Shown here: positions 28,562 to 39,722 of the stretch, piece by piece
How the letters are laid out: every line of letters starts with the position of its first letter
Position numbering within the stretch: the stretch's first letter is position 1
Assembly: GCA_963422645.2 (NCBI GenBank)
Contig: CAXXVO010000010.1
Span: 1-64,000 of the forward strand
Direction: 5' to 3'
DNA from: Alphaproteobacteria bacterium
GTDB taxonomy: Bacteria > Pseudomonadota > Alphaproteobacteria > UBA828
Length of the DNA stretch: 64,000 bases
Notes under the pieces: model-generated
Told to the model about the DNA's origin: nothing
The model's database searches: none
Seen by the model: only the letters and a program-made list of their open reading frames with translations
Position numbers and translations under genes: made by a program

Positions 28562-29360
28562 ATGGGCGTGCACACACCTGATTCCGACGCACCGCAACGG
28601 GGGAGAGCGCGGACCGTCCGTCTGTGCATCGCCGGCATTGCGGCCATGGTCGCGGCGGCGATGAGCGCGGGCACCGAAGCCGCAGCGACCGAGGGCCTCT
28701 ATCTGCGGCTGGGAATCGGCTTCGACCGCCCGGCAGAGACGGAGTTCCTCGACAAGAACTGAGAGAGCGAGTCTCCGGTCCCGCTCTACGGTTGCGGCCC
28801 CGGTACCGACGGGGCGCCGTATCGTTCGGTGGGGGAGTTCGGAACGGTGACCGCACTCGAAGTCGGAATCGGCGGCACCGTCGCGCCGGCGCTGAGCCTG
28901 GAAGCTTTCGTCGAGTACCGCCCAGGCCTCACCTTCAGCGGGCGAGCCAACTTCCTGGCGCCAGAGCGGCGACAGGCGGTATCGACCGACCTATCGGTCC
29001 TGTCCGGGATGGTTGCCGCCTACCTGGAGCTTCCGGCACTGGGCTTGCCGAGGCTCGGCCCCTTCGACCCCTTCGTGGGAGTCGGGGTTGGCGTCGCCCG
29101 GGTCAAGACAGGCGAGACGCGGATGATGTTCCCGGCGACGACGACAATCGTGCCGGGCGCGCGCCGGTCCGATTTCGCCTGGATGCTGACGGCGGGCGTC
29201 GCGACGGCATTGAGCGAGAGCGCGACGCTGGAGGTCGCGTGGCGATACAGCGATCTCGGCACCGCCGAGACCGCCACGGGCGGCGGCCGGGTGGTGTGGC
29301 GTGACGGGAGCAGGGAGCCGCTTATACTCGATCAGGCTGCGAGCGAAGCGTACTTAAAAC
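28562..29360 (+). pseudogene. Outer-membrane beta-barrel protein (opacity/OmpA-like), internal TGA and 3' end broken by two IS66 insertions
   Basis: Signal-like N-terminus, PFVGVGVGVA, FAWMLTAGV, WRYSDLG; TGA at 28760; tail RHGIRFSLRQLF continues at 31877-31911 and the stop lies at 36277-36279. Confidence 0.8.
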
Positions 29361-29502
29361 GTAACTACCCAGGTACCCCAATCCTGAGTTGAGGACGGTG
29401 ATTATGGCGGCGGCCGCGGCCTGGTTCTGCCACCGCGATTGGTTCTTGACCTCATAGAGTTGCGGGACTATGGACTGCTCTCTCGCGTGACGGGAGCGGT
29501 CC

Positions 29503-30168
29503 ATGGGGTATTTCGGCTCGAAGGCGACAGCAGGTCTGTGCCAAGCGCTGATTGCGCTGATGCCGCCGCACTCCGTCTACATCGAAAGCCACCTTGGGGG
29601 CGGGGCGCTGATGAAGCGCAAGCCGCCGGCCGTGCGTTCGATCGGCATCGACCGCGATGCGCAGGCGCTCGAGGCCTTCGTCTGCGACTACCCGGTCGAT
29701 CTGGTTCACGGCTGTGCCCATGACTTCCTGGCCTCGTTCCCGTTCCTGGGCCCGGAGCTGGTTTACAGCGATCCGCCCTATCTGCACGCGACCCGCCGCT
29801 CGGCGCAGCGCTACCGCTTCGAGTACGAGGAGGCCGGCCACGTCGCGCTTCTCGCGCTGCTCAAGGCTCTGCCCTGCCAGGTCATGATCTCGGGCCATCC
29901 GTCGGCGCTCTATGACGAGGTGCTGGCGGGATGGCGCCGGCTGGCGCTGCAGGTCACGACCCAGGGTCTGGTGCGAACCGAGGTCGTCTGGTTCAACTAC
30001 GCCCCCGACCGGATGCATTGGGCCAGCCACGCAGGCCGGAACTTCACCGACCGCCAGCGCATCAAGCGCAAGGCAGCCAACTGGGGCCGGCGCTACCAGG
30101 CCTTGCCGCCGGGCGAACGCCTCGCCGTGCTCGCCGCCATGATGGCCGTCGAGGCCGAAGACACGTGA
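29503..30168 (+). CDS. D12/Dam-class N6-adenine DNA methyltransferase
   Basis: YFGSK (motif X), YIESHLGGG (motif I), YSDPPY (motif IV), VMISG. Confidence 0.9.
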   Translation: MGYFGSKATAGLCQALIALMPPHSVYIESHLGGGALMKRKPPAVRSIGIDRDAQALEAFVCDYPVDLVHGCAHDFLASFPFLGPELVYSDPPYLHATRRSAQRYRFEYEEAGHVALLALLKALPCQVMISGHPSALYDEVLAGWRRLALQVTTQGLVRTEVVWFNYAPDRMHWASHAGRNFTDRQRIKRKAANWGRRYQALPPGERLAVLAAMMAVEAEDT

Positions 30169-31703
30169 CGGTGTCGCACTGGCACGAAGACCTCGCCGCC
30201 CGTAACGAGGCCTTCTGCTGCCTGAAGGAGCTTCTCGAGCCATCATCCCTCGCAACCACTGTCGTCGTTGCCGTCCGGGAATGGGGGCAGGGGCTGCTGC
30301 GATCAGCCACCGCGCTCGCCCGGGAAAATGCCGCACTCGAGCAGGAGAACGCGGCCCTGCGCGAGCGCATCGCCGAACTCGAGCGCAGCGCGGCCCTCAA
30401 CAGCACCACAAGCAGCAAGCCCCCCGCCAGCGACGGGCTCAAGAAGAAAAGCGGAGCCCAGAGGCGCACCCAAAGCCAGCGCGGAAAGTCCGGCGGGCCC
30501 AGTGGCGGCCAGCCCGGCCACAAGGGAACCACCCTCGCGCGGAGCGACAGCCCGGACCGTGTCGTCGATCACCACCCCTCCACCTGTTCCGGCTGTGGCG
30601 TCGAGCTCTCGGACGCCGACCGGCAAGGCGCGCCCGCCTGTCGGCAGGTCTTCGACGTACCCGAGCCGCAGCCTCTCGAGGTCACCGAACACCGCGCCCA
30701 TCGCTGCCTCTGCGGCGCATGCGGCACGCTGACACGAGCCGCCTTCCCGCCGGGCGTCACCGCCCCGGTCCAGTACGGCCCTCGCATCACCGCTTGGGTG
30801 AGTTACCTGCTGTACGCCCAGTTCGTGCCCGAGAAGCGTCTGGCCGAACTCATGAGCGACATCTTCGCGGTGTCCATCTCCACTGCCACGATCGCCGCCA
30901 TGGGCCGGCGCACAGCGCAGCGCTTCGAGGGCTTCCTCGACCATGTCGCCGATCTGATCCGCACGCAGGCGCCGGTCAAGCACCTCGACGAGACCGGCCT
31001 GCGTATCGCCGCCCGTACCCGCTGGCTCCATGTGCTGTGCACCCCGTTGCTCACCGTCCTGCGCATCGGCGAGGGACGCGGCGATGTCGAAAAGAACCTG
31101 AAAGGCATCCTCGTCCACGACGACTTCGCCCCCTACTTCACCATCAAGGGCGTCCGCCACGGCGCCTGCAACGCACATCACCTGCGCGAACTCCAGGCCC
31201 TGATCGACATCGAGAAGGAGGAATGGGCGGCGAGCATGCACCGCCTGCTTCAGCGCGCGCGCAGGGCCGCCCGCTTCGCCCGTGAGAAAGACCGTCAAGT
31301 CCCCGCCTCCCTGGTGGCCCGCATCTCAAGGGCATGGGACCGTATCCTCGAAGAAGCCATCGCCTTCCATGAGGCCCAACCGCCGCTCCAGATCGCAAAG
31401 CGAGGGCGAAAGAAACGCCGCATCGGCCACAACCTCGCGCGCCGCCTTCAAAAGCATAAGGAGGGCTGCCTGCGCTTCCTCACCGACCTGCGCACGCCGT
31501 TCACGAATAACGAGGCGGAGCGTGACATCCGTATGAACAAAGTGCATGAGAAGATCTCAGGCGGCTTCCGCTCCCTGCAAGGCGCCTGCAACTTCGCCGG
31601 AATGCGCAGCGTCATCGTCACCGCTCGAAAGCAAGGCTGGAACATCCTGCAAATCCTGGCGCACCCGGAACCGATGCAGCTGATCCCTATACTGCGCTCC
31701 TGA
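30165..31703 (+). CDS. tnpC: IS66 transposase
   Basis: GTG overlaps the MTase stop (GTGA); coiled coil, SSKPP.SD, GGQPGHKG, zinc finger, HLDETG, CNAHHLREL, TNNEAER. Confidence 0.92.
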   Translation: MTVSHWHEDLAARNEAFCCLKELLEPSSLATTVVVAVREWGQGLLRSATALARENAALEQENAALRERIAELERSAALNSTTSSKPPASDGLKKKSGAQRRTQSQRGKSGGPSGGQPGHKGTTLARSDSPDRVVDHHPSTCSGCGVELSDADRQGAPACRQVFDVPEPQPLEVTEHRAHRCLCGACGTLTRAAFPPGVTAPVQYGPRITAWVSYLLYAQFVPEKRLAELMSDIFAVSISTATIAAMGRRTAQRFEGFLDHVADLIRTQAPVKHLDETGLRIAARTRWLHVLCTPLLTVLRIGEGRGDVEKNLKGILVHDDFAPYFTIKGVRHGACNAHHLRELQALIDIEKEEWAASMHRLLQRARRAARFAREKDRQVPASLVARISRAWDRILEEAIAFHEAQPPLQIAKRGRKKRRIGHNLARRLQKHKEGCLRFLTDLRTPFTNNEAERDIRMNKVHEKISGGFRSLQGACNFAGMRSVIVTARKQGWNILQILAHPEPMQLIPILRS

Positions 31704-32198
31704 ACTTCTCCGGCTCATCCTGAGTATCGCTGTCCTCTCATCTTGTTCGCGACGCGGCGTTCATCATCCTCTCGCGCTCAAGAGAGTAGGCACCCCCGCG
31801 GCGTGGGGGCGTTGACGCAAAAGGAACTGGCTTGTTCCATAAGAGAGAGGGGGTACCTGGGCAGTTACCTTAAAACGCCATGGGATTCGCTTCTCTCTGC
31901 GCCAATTATTCGTAACTGCCCAGGTTCTTGCTGTGAAAATTCTCTGGGATTCGGCACAACGCTACCCACGCGACGCCCGTGTGCTCCTCTGGGGTCGCCG
32001 GGTTTCACAGCTCACGATGCCCCTCTTGCGGACTGCGACCGGTAAGCTACCCCGATGTGGCCCGAAGTCCGCCCGCGCGACGGGCACCGATTTTCAGTAA
32101 CTGCCCAGGTCTGATTCTGCCGAGCACTCGGACGTGATGGATTGATGGTTCTGACCAGCCAGGGGTCAGGCGGCGCTTTCCCGGAGCAGCGCAGGATT

Positions 32199-33740
32199 TC
32201 AGAAGCGCAATACGGGGATCAGCTGGATTGGATCGGGGTGCGCCAGGGTTTCGAGGACATTCCAGCGCTGTTTTCGAGCGGTGGCGATGACGGATCGCAG
32301 GTTTGCGAAGTCGCGGGCGCCTTGTATCGAGCGGAAGCCGCCTGAGATTTTCTGGCGCAGCTTGCCCATTCGGAGGTCGCGCTCGGCCTCGTTGTTGGAG
32401 AAGGGGGTTCGCGGATCGGTGAGGAAGCGCAGGCACCCCTCCTTGTACTTCTGGAGTCGGAGGGCGAGGTTGTGACCGATGCGGCGCTTTTGTCGTCCGC
32501 GCTTTCCGGTCTGGAGCGGTGGCATTTCTTCGTGAGAGGCGATGGCACGTTCGAGGATGCGGTCCCAGGCTCGCGAGATGCGGGCCACCAGTGAGGCGGG
32601 CACGTCGCGGTCGTTCTTGTGGGCGAAGCGGGCGGCTCTGTTGGCACGGATGAGGAGCCGGTGCGTGCTCGTTGCCCAGTCTTCCTTCTCGATCTCGATG
32701 AGGGCTTGGAGCTCGCGCAGGTGATGGGCGTTGCAGGCCCCGTGGCGCACGCCCTCGAGAGCGAAGTAGGTGGCGTAGTCGTCATGGATGACGATGCCGT
32801 TGAGCTTCTCGTCGATGTGGCTGCGCCCGGTGGCGACGCGCAGGATGGTGAGCAACGGGGTGCACAGCACATGGAGCCAATGGGTCCGGGCGGCGATGCG
32901 GATGCCGGTCTCGTCGAGGTGTTTGACTGGGGCTGCGGTGCGGATGATCTCCGCGAGGCGATCGAGGAAGCCCTCGAAGCGCCGGGCGGTGCGCCTTCCC
33001 ATGGCGACGATGGTGGCTGTTGAGAGCTTGACCGCGAAGAGGTCGCTCATGACCTCGGCGACCCGCTTCTCGGGAATGAACTGAGCGTGCAGCAGGTAGG
33101 TCACCCACGCGGTGATGCGCGGCCCGTATTGGACCGGTGCGCTCACGCCGTTCGGGAAGACGGCTGTCGTCACGGTGCCGCAGGCAGCGCAGAGGCAACG
33201 ATGGCCGCGATGTTCGGTGACCTCGAGGGGCTGCGGCTCGGGCACATCGAAGACCTGCCGGCAGACGGGGGCTCCGTGACGGTCAGCGTCCGACAGCGGC
33301 GCGCCGCAGCCCTCACAGGCGGACGGATCATGATCGACGACATGGTCGGGCGTCGCGGTCCGCTCCAGGGTAGTTCCCTTGTGGCCCGGCTGGCCGCCAC
33401 TGGGCCTGTCGGACTTGCCGCGCTGGCTCCGGGTGCGCTTCTCCCGGTCACCGCTCTTCTTCTTCAGACCGTCGCTGGCCGGCGGCTTGGAGCTGGTGGT
33501 GCTGTCGAGCGCGGCGCTGCGCTCGAGTTCGGCGATCCGCTCGCGCAAGCGGGCGTTCTCCCGCTCCAGCGCGTCGTTCTCCTTGACCAGGGCCGCGCTC
33601 AGGCGCAGCAACCCCTGGCCCCATTCCCGAATGGCCTTGACGGCGGTCATTGCGAAGGATTGTGGGGTGAAAAGGTCCTGCAGGCACGCGAAGGCCTCGT
33701 CGTGGGCAGCGAGGTCCTCGTGCCAGCGCGACACTGTCAC
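32199..33740 (-). CDS. tnpC: IS66 transposase
   Basis: Paralogue of 30165-31703; GTG overlaps the MTase stop. Confidence 0.92.
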   Translation of the reverse strand: MTVSRWHEDLAAHDEAFACLQDLFTPQSFAMTAVKAIREWGQGLLRLSAALVKENDALERENARLRERIAELERSAALDSTTSSKPPASDGLKKKSGDREKRTRSQRGKSDRPSGGQPGHKGTTLERTATPDHVVDHDPSACEGCGAPLSDADRHGAPVCRQVFDVPEPQPLEVTEHRGHRCLCAACGTVTTAVFPNGVSAPVQYGPRITAWVTYLLHAQFIPEKRVAEVMSDLFAVKLSTATIVAMGRRTARRFEGFLDRLAEIIRTAAPVKHLDETGIRIAARTHWLHVLCTPLLTILRVATGRSHIDEKLNGIVIHDDYATYFALEGVRHGACNAHHLRELQALIEIEKEDWATSTHRLLIRANRAARFAHKNDRDVPASLVARISRAWDRILERAIASHEEMPPLQTGKRGRQKRRIGHNLALRLQKYKEGCLRFLTDPRTPFSNNEAERDLRMGKLRQKISGGFRSIQGARDFANLRSVIATARKQRWNVLETLAHPDPIQLIPVLRF

Positions 33741-34405
33741 GAACCCTCGTCGGCCTCGACGGCCATGATCGCGGCCAGCACCGCCAGGCGTTCGCCCGCC
33801 GGCATGGCCTCGTAGCGCCGGCCCCAGTTGGCCGCCTTGCGCTTGATGCACTGGCGCTCGGTGAAGTTCCGGCCGGCGAAGCTCGCCCAGTGCACCCGGT
33901 CAGGCGCGAAGTTGAACCACACGACCTCGGTCCGCACCTGGGCCTGGGTCGTCACCTGCAGCGCCAGCCGGCGCCAGCCCGCCAGCAGCTCGTCATAGAG
34001 CGCAGACGGGTGGCCCGAGACCATCACCTGGCAGGGCAGACCCTTGAGCAGTTCGAGGAGCGCGACGTGGTCGGCCTCCTCGTACTCGAAGCGGTAGCGC
34101 TGCGACGAACGCCGGGTCGCGTGCAGATAGGGCGGATCGCTGTAGACCAGCTCCGGGCCCAGAAACGGGAACGAGGCCAGGAAGGAATGGGCGCAGCCGT
34201 GCACCAACTCCACCGGGTAGTCGCAGCCAAAGGCCTCAAGCGCCCGCTCGTCGCGGTCGATCCCGATCGAGCGCATGGCCGCAGGCTTGCGCTTCATCAG
34301 CGCCCCGCCCCCAAGATGGCTCTCGATATAGACAGAGTGCCGCGGCATCAGCGCAATCAGCGCCTGGCTCAGACCGGTCGTCGCCTTCGACCCGAAATAC
34401 CCCAC
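33737..34405 (-). CDS. D12/Dam-class N6-adenine DNA methyltransferase
   Basis: Same motifs; about 30 substitutions relative to the B enzyme by manual count. Confidence 0.9.
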   Translation of the reverse strand: MGYFGSKATTGLSQALIALMPRHSVYIESHLGGGALMKRKPAAMRSIGIDRDERALEAFGCDYPVELVHGCAHSFLASFPFLGPELVYSDPPYLHATRRSSQRYRFEYEEADHVALLELLKGLPCQVMVSGHPSALYDELLAGWRRLALQVTTQAQVRTEVVWFNFAPDRVHWASFAGRNFTERQCIKRKAANWGRRYEAMPAGERLAVLAAIMAVEADEGS

Positions 34406-34648
34406 CGGCTGCTCCTCTCATGCGAGAGTGCAACCCATAGGCGAGAGAACCTATACAGTCAAGCGGGGATCAACGACGCGCCGACGGCGAAACGGCACCG
34501 ACGGCAAGCAACATCAGCACGCACTCAGAACTGGCGGCGGGGTACCTGGGTAGTTACGATTTTCATTCTATGGGGTGGTCCAGCACGGCGTCGACCATGA
34601 TCGTTTATGAGAATGGCTCCGCTGTTGGAGAACCCGTGCCAGGTGAGC

Positions 34649-36154
34649 TTACGCGCACTTGACGGTGGCGATGAGCCGATCCGATGGGCTGGTCAGGGCT
34701 TCGATGATATTCCAGCCCTGCTTTCTGGCGGTGGTGATGACGCTGCGCAGGATGGCGAAGTTCTCGGCCCCCTGCGCGGACCGGAAGCCCCCGGAGATCT
34801 TCTGGCGCAGCTTCATCATCCGAAGGTCGCGCTCGGCCTCGTTGTTCGTGAACCCGACCTCGAGGTCGATCAGGAACCGGAGCACCGCGCATTTGTGGTC
34901 GCGCAGCCTCAAGGCCAGATTGTGACCGATCCTTCGCTTCCGGCGCTTCTTCCTCTTGCCAGGCGAGAACGGTGGTTGGCTCTCGTGAAAGGCCAGCGCA
35001 TCGGCGATGATCTCGTCGTATCGGCGCTCGATCAGCGCCACAAGCCTCGCCGGAACGGCGATATCCTTGTCCAGCGCGATGCGGGCGGCGCGATTGGCTC
35101 GGCGCAGGAGCTGCTGCATCCGCCGGGCCCAAGCCTCCCCTTCGATGTCCACCAGCGCCTGCAACTCCCGCAGGTGATGGGCGTTGCACAGGCCGTGCTC
35201 CACCCCTTCCATCGCGAAGTACGGCTTCCAGTGATCGTGCACGACGATGCCGGAGACACCCGAGAGCAGGGCGCCGCGCTTGCCGCTGACCCGGTACGCC
35301 GCCAGCAGCGGCGTGCAGATCACATGAAGCCACTGCGTCTGACCGCCGATCCGCAAGCCGGTCTCGTCCATGTGTTTCACCCGCGCCGTGCCCGCCGCCA
35401 GGTCCTGTATGTGCAAGGCCGCGTCCCGCAGCCGCTCGGCCGCCCTCTCGCTCATCGTCGCCAACGTCGCAGCCGTCACCGGCGCGCCGAAGAGCTCGGC
35501 CATCACCTGCGACAGCCGATCCTCCGGCAGGAAGTGAGCGTGCTGAAGGTAGACCGCCACCCCGGCAATGCGCGGGCCGTACTGCACCGGCGCCGACACC
35601 CCGTCGGGGAACGCCGCCCGGGTCACCGTCCCGCAATGCCCGCAGCACTTGGCATGCGCCCGGTGCTCGGTCACCTCCAGGGGGCTCGGCTCGGGCAGAT
35701 CGAACACCTGGCGGGCGACGGGCGTTCCCGCCCTGGCCGCGTCCGAAAGCGGCGAACCGCATCCCTTGCAGGAAGCCGGGACGTGATCCTTCACCCGATC
35801 CGGGTGATCGGCGCGGCGCAGCGTCTTGCCCTTGTGGCCGGGCTGGCCACCGGGCTTGCGGCCCGATTTGCCGCGCAGGCTTCGGGTTCGCCGCTTCGAA
35901 TTCGGCTTCCTCAGCCCATCGCTCGAAGGCGGCTTGCCGCTGTTGCCGCTGTTGAGGCCGAGACGGCGCTCCAACTCCTCGATGCGCTCGACGAGACGCG
36001 CGACTTGCTCTTCCAGCCGCGCGTTCTGCTGCCGAAGCCAGGCATTTTCCTCCCGAAGCCGGGCGTTCTCCTCCTCCAGGCGGGCGATCTTCTGCGCGGG
36101 CGTTTCGGGCGCTGCTCCCGTCGAAGGGCCGCGCGGCGACTCGGGATTGCTCAT
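34649..36154 (-). CDS. tnpC: IS66 transposase (intact)
   Basis: 501 aa; HMDETG, CNAHHLREL, TNNEAERDLR. Confidence 0.94.
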   Translation of the reverse strand: MSNPESPRGPSTGAAPETPAQKIARLEEENARLREENAWLRQQNARLEEQVARLVERIEELERRLGLNSGNSGKPPSSDGLRKPNSKRRTRSLRGKSGRKPGGQPGHKGKTLRRADHPDRVKDHVPASCKGCGSPLSDAARAGTPVARQVFDLPEPSPLEVTEHRAHAKCCGHCGTVTRAAFPDGVSAPVQYGPRIAGVAVYLQHAHFLPEDRLSQVMAELFGAPVTAATLATMSERAAERLRDAALHIQDLAAGTARVKHMDETGLRIGGQTQWLHVICTPLLAAYRVSGKRGALLSGVSGIVVHDHWKPYFAMEGVEHGLCNAHHLRELQALVDIEGEAWARRMQQLLRRANRAARIALDKDIAVPARLVALIERRYDEIIADALAFHESQPPFSPGKRKKRRKRRIGHNLALRLRDHKCAVLRFLIDLEVGFTNNEAERDLRMMKLRQKISGGFRSAQGAENFAILRSVITTARKQGWNIIEALTSPSDRLIATVKCA

Positions 36155-36506
36155 GTCGTTGTTGAGTCATTTCCCGAAATTCCCGTCAAGCCCTTTCCAC
36201 CAACTCCGAACGAGAAACGCCTCAATCCACTGGCCCAAAATGACAAATCAGACGACCTGGGCAGTTACAATTATTCTAATGAAGAATAGCGGCAGGCGGT
36301 GAACTGTCAATCGGCTTTCAATACTGACCCCCGATCGGCGTGCAAAATTGACCCCCCTGAGTGGCACGGCGGAGGTTGTCCCGGTAGCCAATAGGGGGGA
36401 CCCGCGCGGCTTCGTGTGGCGCCCTGCGCTACGCGGAGCGAAGCCGCGTGGGGGGTCCCTGTTGGCCCACCGGGGCAACCGGGCCGCAAGGGAGGCCGGC
36501 GGCGGG

Positions 36507-37235
36507 TCAGGAGCGGTTCTTGAAGCGCCAGCTCTCGTTGCCGGTCTCGATGATCTCGCAATGATGGGTGAGGCGATCGAGCAGCGCTGTGGTCATCTTG
36601 GGGTCGCCGAAGACGGATGGCCATTCGCCGAAGGCGAGGTTTGTGGTGATGACGATCGAGGTGCGCTCGTAGAGCCGGCTCATCAGATGGAAGAGCAGCT
36701 GCCCACCGGCCTGGGCGAAGGGCAGGTAGCCGAGCTCGTCGAGGATGACGAAGTCGCGGCGGACGAGCTGGTCTGCAGTGCGGCCCTGGCGTCCGGCGCG
36801 AAGCTCGGCCTCGAGGAGGTTGACCAGGTCGACGACGTTGTAGCACCGGCCGCGCGCGCCCTTGCGGATGCAGGACCGCGCGATGGCGACGGCGAGATGG
36901 GTCTTGCCGGTACCGGTGCCGCCGACCAGCACGATGTTGCGTTTGCCCTCGAGGAAGCCGCCGCCGGCGAGCTCCTGGATCAGGGGCTCGTTGACCGGCG
37001 AGGCGGCGAAGTCGAAGTCGGCCAGCTCCTTGACCGTCGGCAGCTTGGCGGAGGCCATCTGGTACTTGATCGAGCGGGCCCTCTTGTCGGCGATCTCGAC
37101 CTGCAGCAGCGTACCGATGATCTGTTGCACCGGATGGCGGCGCTTGAGCCCGTCGGCAAGGATGTCGTCGTAAGCGGCGCGCATACCTGCGAGCTTCAGC
37201 TGGGTCATCATCTCCAGCACATCATGACGCTCCAT
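36507..37235 (-). CDS. istB: IS21 helper ATPase
   Basis: [23 protein letters not shown]. Confidence 0.95.
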
Positions 37236-38748
37236 GACCGGCCTCCCTCAGGCTGTCGTAGCGCTGACAGTCGGCTACCGGCTTGTGGCGAAGCTGCAGG
37301 CCCTCGGGCGTCGGGATGATTGCCGGCGGTGCCGGCTGGCGCTGCCGGGCGAGGATGTTGAGCACCACGTCGGCGCTGCAGGCACCGCAGTCGAGCGTCT
37401 CGGCACAGGCCGCCTCAACCGCCTCCAGTCCGTCCTCCAGCACCGCCGCGAGCACCTTGACGAACTGCCGGTCGCCGTCGTCGTGGCCCGCGAGCCGGGT
37501 TCGCAGGCGGCCGAGCGCGTTGGGCAACTGCCAGTCCTTGAAGGGCGCGCCATTGCGTAGCGCGCCGGGCTTCCGCGTCAGGATCGGCACGTAATGCCAC
37601 GGATCGTAGACGAACCGGCCGCGCCCGAAGCTGCGGGGGTGCTCGGCAACGGTCTCGCCGTCCTGGCGGATGACGATCCGATCGGCATAGGCCCGCACGT
37701 CCACCGGCCGGCCGACGGCGCGGGCCGCGACGCTGTACTGGTTGTTGTCGAAGCGCACCAGACAGGTCTTCGAGACCGACACCTCGCTGGCATGGAAGCC
37801 GTCGAAGGGGCCGCGATACGCCATCAGGAAGGGCTGCTCCTCCTCGAACACCTGCCACACCGTCTTGCCCGGGATTGTCGGATGCGGATGCTTCTTGGCG
37901 TCCTCGATGCACCGATCCATCAGCCACTCGTTGATCTCGGCGTAGGAGCGGCCCCGCGGGATGGGCACGAACAGGCGGCCGCGAAGGTCACCCACCTGCT
38001 TCTCGACCTGCCCCTTCTCCCAGCCAGCCCCTGGCGTGCACGCCACAGGCTCCACCAGATGGTGCGAGCACAGCTCCTGGAAGCGGCGGTTGTAGTCCCG
38101 CTTCTTGCCCACGAAGATCGTGCTCACCGCCGTCTTCATGTTGTCGTAGATGCCCCGCCGGCAGACCCCGCCGAAGAAGCGGAAGGCACGCTCGTGCGCC
38201 TCGAAGACCATCTCCTGGCTCTCGCGGGGAAAGATCTGGACCAGATACATCCGGCTGTGGCACAGCCGCATGTGCGCCGCCTTCACCCTGGTCGTCGCGC
38301 CCGACAGACGCGCGTACTCGTGGCTCCAGTCGAACTGGTAGGCCTCGCCGGGATCGAAGATCAGCGGCACATAGGCCTGCGCCGGCGACAACAGCCGCCA
38401 CCGGCGCCGCCAGGCCCTGGCATAGCGGCGAACCGCGTCATAGCCGCCCTTGTAGCCCAGCGACACAAGGTCTTCATGAATCCGCAGAAGAGACAGCCGA
38501 TCCTTGCGTGCCTTCTTCTCGTTGGCCTTCAGCTGGCGCTCAAGCTCCTCCACCCACAGCCCAAGCTTCGGCATCGGCTGGATCTTGCGCTCGTAGCTGT
38601 GCGAGGTCGCATCGCCCCGCACCACCTTGCGTATCGTGTTCTTGGAAACCCTCAAATCCCGGGCGAGCTTCTTGATCGGAACGCCCTTCACCAGATGATC
38701 CCGACGGATCTTCGCGATCGTTTCCACAACCAGCATCTCCCCCACCAC
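37222..38748 (-). CDS. istA: IS21 transposase
   Basis: [19 protein letters not shown]. Confidence 0.95.
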
Positions 38749-38855
38749 CCCGTCCGTCCAAACGACGAGGTGTGTTCATGGACACAAATCCAAGGGGGTC
38801 AATTTTGGACGCCGATCACCCCCAATAGGGGGTCACTTTTCCACGCTTAACAACA

Positions 38856-39722
38856 CTTCAGGCAGCAGAAGGCCTCGTTACGGGCGGCGAGGTCTTCGTG
38901 CCAGTGCGACACCGTCACGTGTCTTCGGCCTCGACGGCCATCATGGCGGCGAGCACGGCGAGGCGTTCGCCCGGCGGCAAGGCCTGGTAGCGCCGGCCCC
39001 AGTTGGCTGCCTTGCGCTTGATGCGCTGGCGGTCGGTGAAGTTCCGGCCTGCGTGGCTGGCCCAATGCATCCGGTCGGGGGCGTAGTTGAACCAGACGAC
39101 CTCGGTTCGCACCAGACCCTGGGTCGTGACCTGCAGCGCCAGCCGGCGCCATCCCGCCAGCACCTCGTCATAGAGCGCCGACGGATGGCCCGAGATCATG
39201 ACCTGGCAGGGCAGAGCCTTGAGCAGCGCGAGAAGCGCGACGTGGCCGGCCTCCTCGTACTCGAAGCGGTAGCGCTGCGCCGAGCGGCGGGTCGCGTGCA
39301 GATAGGGCGGATCGCTGTAAACCAGCTCCGGGCCCAGGAACGGGAACGAGGCCAGGAAGTCATGGGCACAGCCGTGAACCAGATCGACCGGGTAGTCGCA
39401 GACGAAGGCCTCGAGCGCCTGCGCATCGCGGTCGATGCCGATCGAACGCACGGCCGGCGGCTTGCGCTTCGTCAGCGCCCCGCCCCCAAGGTGGCTTTCG
39501 ATGTAGACGGAGTGCGGCGGCATCAGCGCAATCAGCGCTTGGCACAGACCTGCTGTCGCCTTCGAGCCGAAATACCCCATGGACCGCTCCCGTCACGCGA
39601 GAGAGCAGTCCATAGTCCCGCAACTCTATGAGGTCAAGAACCAATCGCGGTGGCAGAACCAGGCCGCGGCCGCCGCCATAATCACCGTCCTCAACTCAGG
39701 ATTGGGGTACCTGGGTAGTTAC
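38856..39722 (-). mobile_element. Truncated second copy of IS66 element 'B' (left end, MTase and first ~20 codons of tnpC)
   Basis: Reverse complement of 29361 to about 30227; cut exactly at the IS21 end. Confidence 0.93.
38915..39580 (-). CDS. D12/Dam-class N6-adenine DNA methyltransferase (third copy)
   Basis: Identical to 29503-30168 except M37T. Confidence 0.9.
   Translation of the reverse strand: MGYFGSKATAGLCQALIALMPPHSVYIESHLGGGALTKRKPPAVRSIGIDRDAQALEAFVCDYPVDLVHGCAHDFLASFPFLGPELVYSDPPYLHATRRSAQRYRFEYEEAGHVALLALLKALPCQVMISGHPSALYDEVLAGWRRLALQVTTQGLVRTEVVWFNYAPDRMHWASHAGRNFTDRQRIKRKAANWGRRYQALPPGERLAVLAAMMAVEAEDT

Follow-up and report, generated by a model that had tools for sequence, protein, structure and literature searches.

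The methylase-like gene that precedes the transposase gene in two insertion sequences (ISs) of an alphaproteobacterial genome is a portable cassette of about 725 bp, which consists of promoter, putative palindromic operator, 5' leader and open reading frame (ORF) and has moved among elements of the IS66 family, where at least five transposase lineages carry it, and of the IS701 and IS1634 families. The two ISs, elements B and C, lie in a stretch of 64,000 nucleotides (positions 1 to 64,000 of contig CAXXVO010000010.1, assembly GCA_963422645.2), called the window here, and both carry the gene directly upstream of the IS66 transposase gene tnpC. The cassette protein is a relative of Upf31 of the IncP-1 plasmids. 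It is already known that ISs can carry passenger genes, that orphan methylases occur on mobile DNA and that Dam controls IS10; new here are the sharp borders of the cassette, its transfer between IS families, the operator, and the link to Upf31 and its experiments. A search of full-text literature, with ISfinder and TnCentral outside its scope, found no description of a methylase inside IS66, IS701 or IS1634 elements; an article considered as a prior description (PMC9296519) deals with a different subject in the part that was available. Elements B and C comprise the following features.

29361-31868, plus strand: element B, a complete IS66-family IS of 2508 bp with methylase cassette and tnpC (repeat search, junctions read).
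29361-29379, plus strand: left inverted repeat of B (GTAACTACCCAGGTACCCC), with its partner repeat at 31850-31868.
29446-29474, plus strand: cassette promoter of B as read from the sequence, with -35 TTGACC (29446-29451), a 17-nt spacer and -10 TATGGA (29469-29474).
29453-29472, plus strand: putative palindromic operator of B, CATAG-N10-CTATG, in the spacer and overlapping the -10.
29477-29497, plus strand: inverted repeat GCTCTC...GGGAGC of the B 5' leader, directly before the ATG.
29503-30168, plus strand: methylase-like gene of B, Upf31 family, Dam fold, lacking the target-recognition domain (TRD), 221 aa, DPPY at residues 90-93 (ORF list, profiles, model).
30165-31703, plus strand: tnpC of B, IS66 DDE transposase, 512 aa counted from its GTG, with which the methylase stop overlaps.
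32097-34557, minus strand: element C, a complete IS66-family element of 2461 bp, which sits inside element A.
33737-34405, minus strand: methylase-like gene of C, 222 aa, with the operator TATAG-N10-CTATG at 34436-34455 (minus strand).
32199-33740, minus strand: tnpC of C, 513 aa when counted from the GTG in the overlap.

IS66 elements are defined by terminal inverted repeats beginning with GTAA and by 8-bp target site duplications (TSDs). The 19-bp inverted ends of B (GTAACTACCCAGGTACCCC at 29361-29379 and GGGGTACCTGGGCAGTTAC at 31850-31868) are complementary with one mismatch, and the TSD CTTAAAAC is present at 29353-29360 and 31869-31876; C is flanked by the TSD GATTTTCA at 32089-32096 and 34558-34565. 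A Pfam scan of TnpC identified the domains DUF6444, zf-IS66 and DDE_Tnp_IS66 (PF03050 with E 4e-41 in B and 3e-38 in C), and NF033517 was matched with 290 bits (B) and 284 bits (C) at a cut-off of 180. With their GTAA ends, 8-bp duplications and TnpC, B and C are IS66-family elements, and the reading of intact GTAAC... repeats and TSDs at the junctions in an earlier interpretation made from the sequence alone (the original prediction) was correct. Between the left end and tnpC the methylase-like gene is the sole ORF, and it stands where canonical IS66 elements have tnpA and tnpB. Since these two genes are absent, B and C were placed with the tnpC-only IS66 subgroup, presumably the ISBst12 group of ISfinder. 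They share with this subgroup the tnpC domains, an NF033517 score far above the cut-off, the GTAA... ends and the 8-bp duplications; element A, which has tnpC alone and the end sequence GTAACTGCCCAGGT, is a plain member and lacks the methylase gene, as had been predicted. What sets B and C apart from the subgroup is an additional upstream gene, unrelated and translationally coupled to tnpC: the TGA of the methylase gene overlaps the GTG opening the tnpC frame as GTGA at 30165-30168 (B) and 33737-33740 (C). Both the DPPY Dam-like gene in the tnpA/tnpB position and this overlap had been recognised in the original prediction.

The same arrangement was found in other genomes. A search of a genome collection returned 80 loci, most of which repeat the layout of B and C; the locus scans were run with alignment A2, alignment A1 being too diverse for them. 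In the metagenomes of the Joint Genome Institute (JGI) more than 599 stretches matched, and the best 80 loci were analysed: IS66 tnpC is directly downstream in 69 of them, and the remainder includes IS1634 transposases (L130; L182 is a fragment) and more IS66 lineages (L160/L164, L187). The downstream partner of 166 non-viral methylase copies is IS66 tnpC in 146 cases, IS701 in seven, IS1634 in four and IS630 in one; no partner was recognised in three and the contig ended in five. An IS701-family transposase is the next gene in loci L072, L073, L075-L078 and L092.

Comparison of the two genes showed that they do not share one history. At nine loci (L083-L091) the methylase is about 70% identical, while the adjoining tnpC is only 26-31% identical. 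Among the five IS66 lineages, transposase identity is 21-35% and methylase identity 65-87%; for L084 versus L086 the values are 21% and 87%, respectively. Between B and C, synonymous sites have diverged by 0.31 in the methylase genes and by 0.63 in tnpC. The conservation of the methylase beside divergent transposases, together with half the synonymous divergence, shows that the gene is a mobile cassette and not part of a lineage-specific pairing. The original prediction had regarded the pairing as old and under selection; selection was confirmed (see below), the old lineage-specific pairing was not.

The borders of the cassette are sharp. Nucleotide homology between B and the IS701 element L072 covers positions 86-809 of B and extends from the -35 hexamer to one base beyond the methylase stop. 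The IS701 unit of 2.78 kb has the ends AGCTCGACTTTGTACA and 5-bp CTNAG duplications that enclose cassette and transposase, and six copies are present in several genomes. In the second IS66 lineage the ends GTAACTACTCACCC enclose methylase and tnpC, and L086 has its own 29-bp ends. In the IS1634 element L130, inverted ends of 16 bp at 16 and 3192 surround the cassette and the IS1634 transposase, and homology with a second contig, L132, begins exactly at the left end of L130; IS1634 carriage was judged from these inverted ends and the boundary common with L132. L130 is homologous to the IS66 element L125 for about 77 bp past the methylase stop, through the L125 tnpC start, which suggests that the L130 cassette came from an IS66 donor. 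ISs with passenger genes, including methyltransferases, are known as transporter ISs. Like these, the elements described here carry a non-transposase gene within their inverted repeats that moves with the IS, as TSD-flanked multi-copy units in IS66 and IS701; unlike in transporter ISs, the same gene has been captured repeatedly by different IS families, is placed so as to feed the transposase and is more conserved than the transposases.

A tree was calculated from 103 methylases; viral loci beyond L189 had been left out beforehand, as had any row containing an internal stop and same-label rows at least 97% identical. The 99 rows of IS-borne methylases group in a single clade with an SH-aLRT support of 96, and the two relatives from plasmids and the two from phage contigs fall outside it. 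Methylases with IS701 partners belong to the B-type subclade; those with IS1634 or with three further IS66 lineages belong to the L084-type subclade. IS630 was considered as a fourth carrier and rejected: L068 has an IS630 transposase after the cassette, and its sister L071 shares only 828 bp (left end and cassette), so that the L068 arrangement looks like a nested insertion or deletion. Both loci (L068:3867-4692 and L071:3865-4692, from one metagenome-assembled genome, MAG) contain a decayed IS66 left end and an intact cassette with an open 221-aa frame and no tnpC, and may be stranded or domesticated solo copies. L183:664-3225 encodes a methylase with 74% identity in AT-rich surroundings, without a TTGAC/operator region and followed by a gene for an ABC-transporter substrate-binding protein. 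In L082/L110 (one contig) the cassette lies between an upstream IS66 tnpC fragment and an IS91-family transposase located 1.6 kb downstream.

The host assembly (5.9 Mb, 23 contigs, 67% G+C) was searched with the three elements using blastn. It contains 36 full copies of B, 14 of C and 66 of A with 97.4-100% identity; for the 36 B copies the identity is at least 99.7%. Perfect 8-bp duplications surround 22 of the 36 B copies, 11 of the 14 C copies and 48 of the 66 A copies, and the targets are AT-rich within this G+C-rich genome. A, B and C are therefore recently active elements. Many copies without matching flanks form reciprocal flank pairs, for instance GAATACAT/GGAGAGTC and GGAGAGTC/GAATACAT, the signature of inversions or other rearrangements via recombination between IS copies.

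For the regulatory part of the cassette, 110 distinct upstream regions were compared. TTGAC is present 40-80 nt before the start in 106 of them, and the consensus CTTGACAnCATAG-N10-CTATGCT combines a -35 with a -10 (TATGCT) at a distance of 17 nt; an inverted repeat occupies this spacer and runs into the -10. The motif nATAG-N10-CTATn was found in 82 regions, each time with 10 nt between the halves. Many of the 28 regions without the exact motif retain the 10-nt spacing with altered half-sites, some of them with both halves changed and the symmetry preserved (CGTAG...CTACG). Right halves of the CTACG type are concentrated in one supported methylase clade (13 rows), and the exchanges S175R and Q199R accompany this clade; they may serve as a lead, and as a lead only, to the DNA-reading surface. 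From base composition about 13 nATAG-N10-CTATn repeats are expected in the host genome, and 83 are present: 78 are located at methylase starts and one more is a remnant of a B promoter. The host genome thus gives no sign of a host regulon for this repeat.

Upstream repeats are also found outside the IS clade. Arrays of CATAG-N10-CTATG are present in one relative from a Xanthomonas plasmid and in one from a phage contig, and more distant phage-contig relatives have CATCG-N10-CGATG at -30 to -42. In loci L191, L194, L200, L204, L208 and L218 (phage contigs, 33-43% identity, N-terminus YPGGK) CATCG-N10-CGATG or ATCGC-N8-GCGAT is located at about -30 to -115; the spacing in phage-contig relatives is as in the IS clade, the half-site is different. 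With upstream repeats in these relatives too, the layout of repeat plus gene reads as a trait of the whole Upf31 family.

The leader of the second lineage contains the repeat TGATCC-N13-GGATCA, which has six pairs, two of them with compensatory changes. The inverted repeat of the leader might form a hairpin in the RNA; equally, it might be another site for a protein on the DNA. The idea that the hairpin always masks the ribosome-binding site was weakened, since GGAG lies in the 3' arm in B, but in the second lineage a purine-rich stretch follows the stem. On the plus strand, no terminator-like site was found between methylase gene and tnpC.

Insertions and deletions nested in IS-crowded genomes might have trapped a cassette that is useless to the IS between its ends. 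Such a neutral hitch-hiker would be in line with the dense nesting in the window (C in A, an IS21 element against a truncated B copy), with the larger number of cassette-less A copies compared to B and C, and with the homology of L130 to IS66 beyond the methylase stop, which may be what is left of a tnpC and points to capture by rearrangement. Several results speak against it. The ratio of nonsynonymous to synonymous substitution rates (dN/dS) of the methylase genes is 0.22 for B versus C and 0.12-0.30 against other copies, across large synonymous distances, and the dN/dS check proposed with the original prediction thus revealed purifying selection. Searched with the B methylase, the host genome yielded 92 matches; 75 of them are full-length, and 73 of these 75 frames are without a stop. 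Position and orientation upstream of the transposase are identical in every carrier, the trimming in IS701 is near exact, from the -35 to one base beyond the stop, and the promoter and operator are kept in the upstream regions at the frequencies given above. We consider a neutral passenger quite unlikely.

The ends of the carriers were compared with regard to a role of methylation in transposition. Dam control of IS10 and IS50 depends on the host methylase and a GATC site. By analogy, the cassette protein might methylate IS ends or transposase-binding sites and thereby tie transposition to the passage of the replication fork. Besides this precedent, GGTACC in the B ends and GTAC in both B and IS701 ends would suit such control. 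The ends of the five carrier kinds (GTAACTACCCAGGTACCCC, GTAACTACTCACCC, GTATCCGTTCAGATCC..., AGCTCGACTTTGTACA and CTTACTTTCCGCGCAT), however, have no motif in common, and the sole cis element travelling with the gene is its own promoter/operator. GTAC was dropped as a methylation target, as it is absent from the ends of the other carriers, from one C end and from both A ends. Control of the IS10 type is therefore highly improbable. The cassette still resembles the Dam-IS10/IS50 systems in combining an adenine-methylase-type protein with a site overlapping the -10 of a promoter feeding the transposase; it differs from them in that the protein is element-borne and the candidate site is a 20-bp palindrome, whose methylation is hypothetical.

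The cassette protein belongs to a large family: a clustered protein collection yielded 3706 matches, the best 120 of which are all at least 70% identical, and an exhaustive library contained 5660 family representatives at E<=0.001. A Pfam scan of both methylases gave no family at E<=0.01. The NCBIfam Dam model TIGR00571 matched weakly around DPPY, with 22-27 bits compared to a cut-off of 114.85, so the curated score was not reached. A phmmer search with the single protein against PDB sequences gave no match; a profile was needed, and in the profile search both halves align to DpnM (E 3.5e-10) with DpnM residues of approximately 79-183, the TRD, skipped. The AlphaFold2 model (mean predicted local distance difference test score, pLDDT, 91.3) has E. 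coli Dam, DpnM and T4 Dam as top PDB matches, at a template modelling (TM) score of only about 0.55. In the model the catalytic core is followed by a beta hairpin and by the helices 181-199 and 203-220, which bear the conserved basic stretch RQRIKRKAANWGRR... A predicted homodimer (two copies, alignment A1) had a score of 0.21 compared to a mark of 0.42 and was used neither way.

Conservation was determined in an alignment of 48 sequences, down to 40% identity. G5, H23, G32, D90, P91, P92, H113, G178 and R184 are invariant, and K7, E28, G34, Y93, R98, Y104, W144, E160, W163, N165, R189 and E205 are at least 90% conserved or nearly invariant. The motifs for S-adenosylmethionine (SAM) binding of the Dam/D12 family, i.e., the N-terminal xGxK (K7), FxGxG (G32-G34) and the acidic residue after strand 2 (D50), are present, as is the catalytic DPPY (D90-Y93). 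A TRD between the SAM-binding and the catalytic half is missing, only about 55 aa separating motif I (G32-G34) from DPPY (90-93). According to sequence and model, the protein thus appears as a Dam fold minus the TRD with all other Dam-type requirements present. Its SAM and adenine pockets are intact, so that it is predicted to bind or methylate an adenine still, probably at least. The original prediction of the short motif spacing, for which DpnM residues of approximately 79-183 have no counterpart, and of a conserved basic C-terminal extension (with R184, R189 and E205) was borne out. It had also put the divergence of the two enzymes at about 30 mostly conservative positions: the number was right, since 29 of 220 aligned residues differ between B and C, the conservative nature only by half, with 14 of the 29 scoring as positives.

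A tblastn search against 72,556 plasmids matched 196 records, all below 60% identity, of which 134 are conjugative. The group with about 46% identity is upf31.0 of IncP-1beta plasmids, matched over 93% of the query (residues 1-206); in pBP136 (locus L094) upf31.0 is located after the Tra2 genes. Upf31 was recently investigated, and the part of that report available to us describes the following results (Elg et al., Mol Biol Evol 2025, PMC11997246). pBP136 failed to restore GATC methylation in a dam mutant, and over-expressed Upf31 gave no kinetic signal when ER2796, an E. coli strain lacking methylases, was sequenced with the single-molecule real-time (SMRT) technique. A 68-bp region upstream of upf31 is a promoter that full-length Upf31 represses approximately 50-fold (0.09 versus 4.76 XylE units). 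Repression requires the C-terminal domain (residues ~180-225), which is predicted to contact KorB, and the authors recall that upf31 is associated with clustered repeats on IncP-1beta plasmids (PMC11997246).

The IS-borne protein is homologous to Upf31 of pBP136 and R751 over 93% of its length with about 46% identity and is of equal size. Both have a globular Dam-like domain and a basic C-terminal domain of two helices, in which a Trp is conserved (PMC11997246, as far as available); full-length homology including this domain is seen in the helices 181-199 and 203-220 and in the conserved C-terminal columns. Both genes have their own promoter directly upstream, upstream repeats within the family and an adenine methylase annotation. 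Unlike the IS-borne gene, upf31 occurs once, in the plasmid backbone, where its neighbours are the Tra2 genes and a gene of the recombinase family, and the available account links it to the KorA/KorB circuit (PMC11997246). The IS-borne gene, in contrast, lies inside ISs ahead of the transposase, in tens of copies and without KorB; its proteins form their own clade and have the CATAG-type rather than the CATCG-type repeat.

Orphan methylases on conjugative plasmids and phages commonly serve anti-restriction. The cassette might accordingly encode an active orphan N6-adenine methyltransferase of short or relaxed specificity that methylates host and carrier DNA widely, the gain for the IS being anti-restriction or a changed methylome. 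The full Dam-type motif set conserved in the 48 family members, the Dam fold, purifying selection and the relatives on conjugative plasmids (134 of 196 plasmid records) and phage contigs (34 loci) would all agree with this, and loss of the TRD could mean relaxed specificity. The absence of GATC methylation and of a SMRT signal for Upf31 argues against it (PMC11997246, in part), as does the tight autoregulatory architecture with the operator over the -10. Tens of promiscuous methylase copies per genome would also be a heavy load. In an even sample of the host class the gene was found in three of 400 other genomes at E<=1e-40, which gives no hint of a host function of broad use; none of the three same-family genomes in this sample has it at that threshold, and phage contigs contain only relatives of at most 54% identity. 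We regard a broadly acting methylase as doubtful. The original prediction that the IS writes its own m6A is weakened by the Upf31 experiments; it is kept under consideration by the invariant SAM-binding and DPPY residues and by the published Upf31 methylation tests themselves, which, so far as the available part of the article describes them, seem hardly able to reveal a site as rare as the protein's own operator (PMC11997246).

We favour the interpretation that the cassette is a portable autorepressor/promoter module setting the transposase level, to which we assign an even chance. The sigma-70-type promoter of the cassette would give rise to one transcript for the methylase-like gene and tnpC. 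No separate promoter can be recognised for tnpC, which begins on the stop codon of the methylase gene (GTGA) and is therefore most likely made from this transcript. The IS-borne protein would bind the palindrome and shut the promoter that also feeds tnpC, like its plasmid relative Upf31. As a diffusible repressor it would lower the amount of transposase per copy as the copies per cell increase, and a copy entering a naive cell would be briefly derepressed, resulting in a burst of transposase. The gain for the IS would be a ready-made, self-limiting expression unit, which would give unrelated IS families a reason to keep the same module. Autorepression also fits the absence of a shared site in the ends of the carriers, and the conserved palindrome over the promoter, co-varying with the protein clade, supports it indirectly.

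Several points weigh against autorepression. It is carried over from Upf31, which is only about 46% identical, and the upf31 promoter itself shows only a degenerate version of the repeat. The dependence of tnpC on the cassette promoter, although most likely, is deduced from the layout. Cassette-less A is the most numerous of the three elements, and the cassette is therefore not required for expansion. DPPY and the SAM-binding residues are invariant or nearly so, although they would be dispensable in a pure repressor, and autorepression would leave the invariant catalytic pocket unexplained. Furthermore, MAG bin labels of short contigs are unreliable, and our statements on host range are based on long contigs alone.

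The catalytic pocket would be accounted for if the protein were a methyltransferase-repressor with its own operator as substrate, a portable epigenetic switch sensing copy number and replication state. The protein would flip, and perhaps methylate, the adenine of the right half-site CTATG; this adenine is position -11 of the -10 hexamer TATGCT and thus the base captured by sigma-70 at promoter opening. Unrelated IS families would have captured the switch to time their transposase. The operator as substrate would explain why a repressor has an invariant catalytic pocket, how the TRD could be lost and why Upf31 expressed without the operator gave no genome-wide methylation signal. We judge this version unlikely.

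Element-encoded trans-acting repressors are known from other ISs, e.g., InsA of IS1, the inhibitor protein of Tn5 and OrfA of IS911; they are derived from the transposase or have DNA-binding domains in common with it, and they bind the element ends. The logic proposed for the autorepressor module is similar, with an element-encoded protein that would lower the transposase in trans and an activity that would drop as copies rise. The cassette protein differs from these repressors in being an unrelated enzyme fold with its own operator that is interchangeable between IS families.

Further features of the window surround B and C.

31912-32096, minus strand: distal piece of element A (tnpC-only IS66), severed by the insertion of C.
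34566-36268, minus strand: main piece of element A with tnpC at 34649-36154, no methylase and no nATAG-N10-CTATn.
36305-38853, minus strand: IS21-family element with istA (37222-38748) and istB (36507-37235), approximate ends and repeated TGACCCCC motifs.
38856-39722, minus strand: truncated B copy with left end, cassette, methylase gene (38915-39580, one residue different from B) and first tnpC codons.

Rejoined, the two pieces of A (31912-32096 and 34566-36268) give an element of 1888 bp with the TSD AATTATTC at 31904-31911 and 36269-36276. The sequence at 31912-31925 that had been taken for an orphan end of C belongs to A: it is the far end of this element, which was split by C and has this TSD on both sides. 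The truncated B copy was found as predicted; it is 99% identical to B across 889 nt and adjoins the IS21 element. Its other half is missing beside the IS21 element, which has several TGACCCCC-type terminal repeats, indicating a deletion or rearrangement after the insertion.

An IS is usually seen as a transposase and its ends, regulated by pieces of the transposase gene. With the cassette, a foreign and putatively self-regulated gene unit has come time and again to form the front part of the transposase operon. This has happened in three unrelated DDE families, and elements bearing the cassette have reached tens of copies per genome. If the cassette is an autorepressor, it would be a plug-in copy-number governor for mobile DNA and a compact natural part of about 725 bp with a near-consensus promoter. 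If the protein methylates its own promoter as well, transposons would carry a self-contained epigenetic switch. Upf31 of the IncP-1 plasmids can now be seen as part of a far larger family and has a candidate site on the DNA, and annotations as 'DNA adenine methylase' in the Upf31 family may not denote genome-wide methylases.

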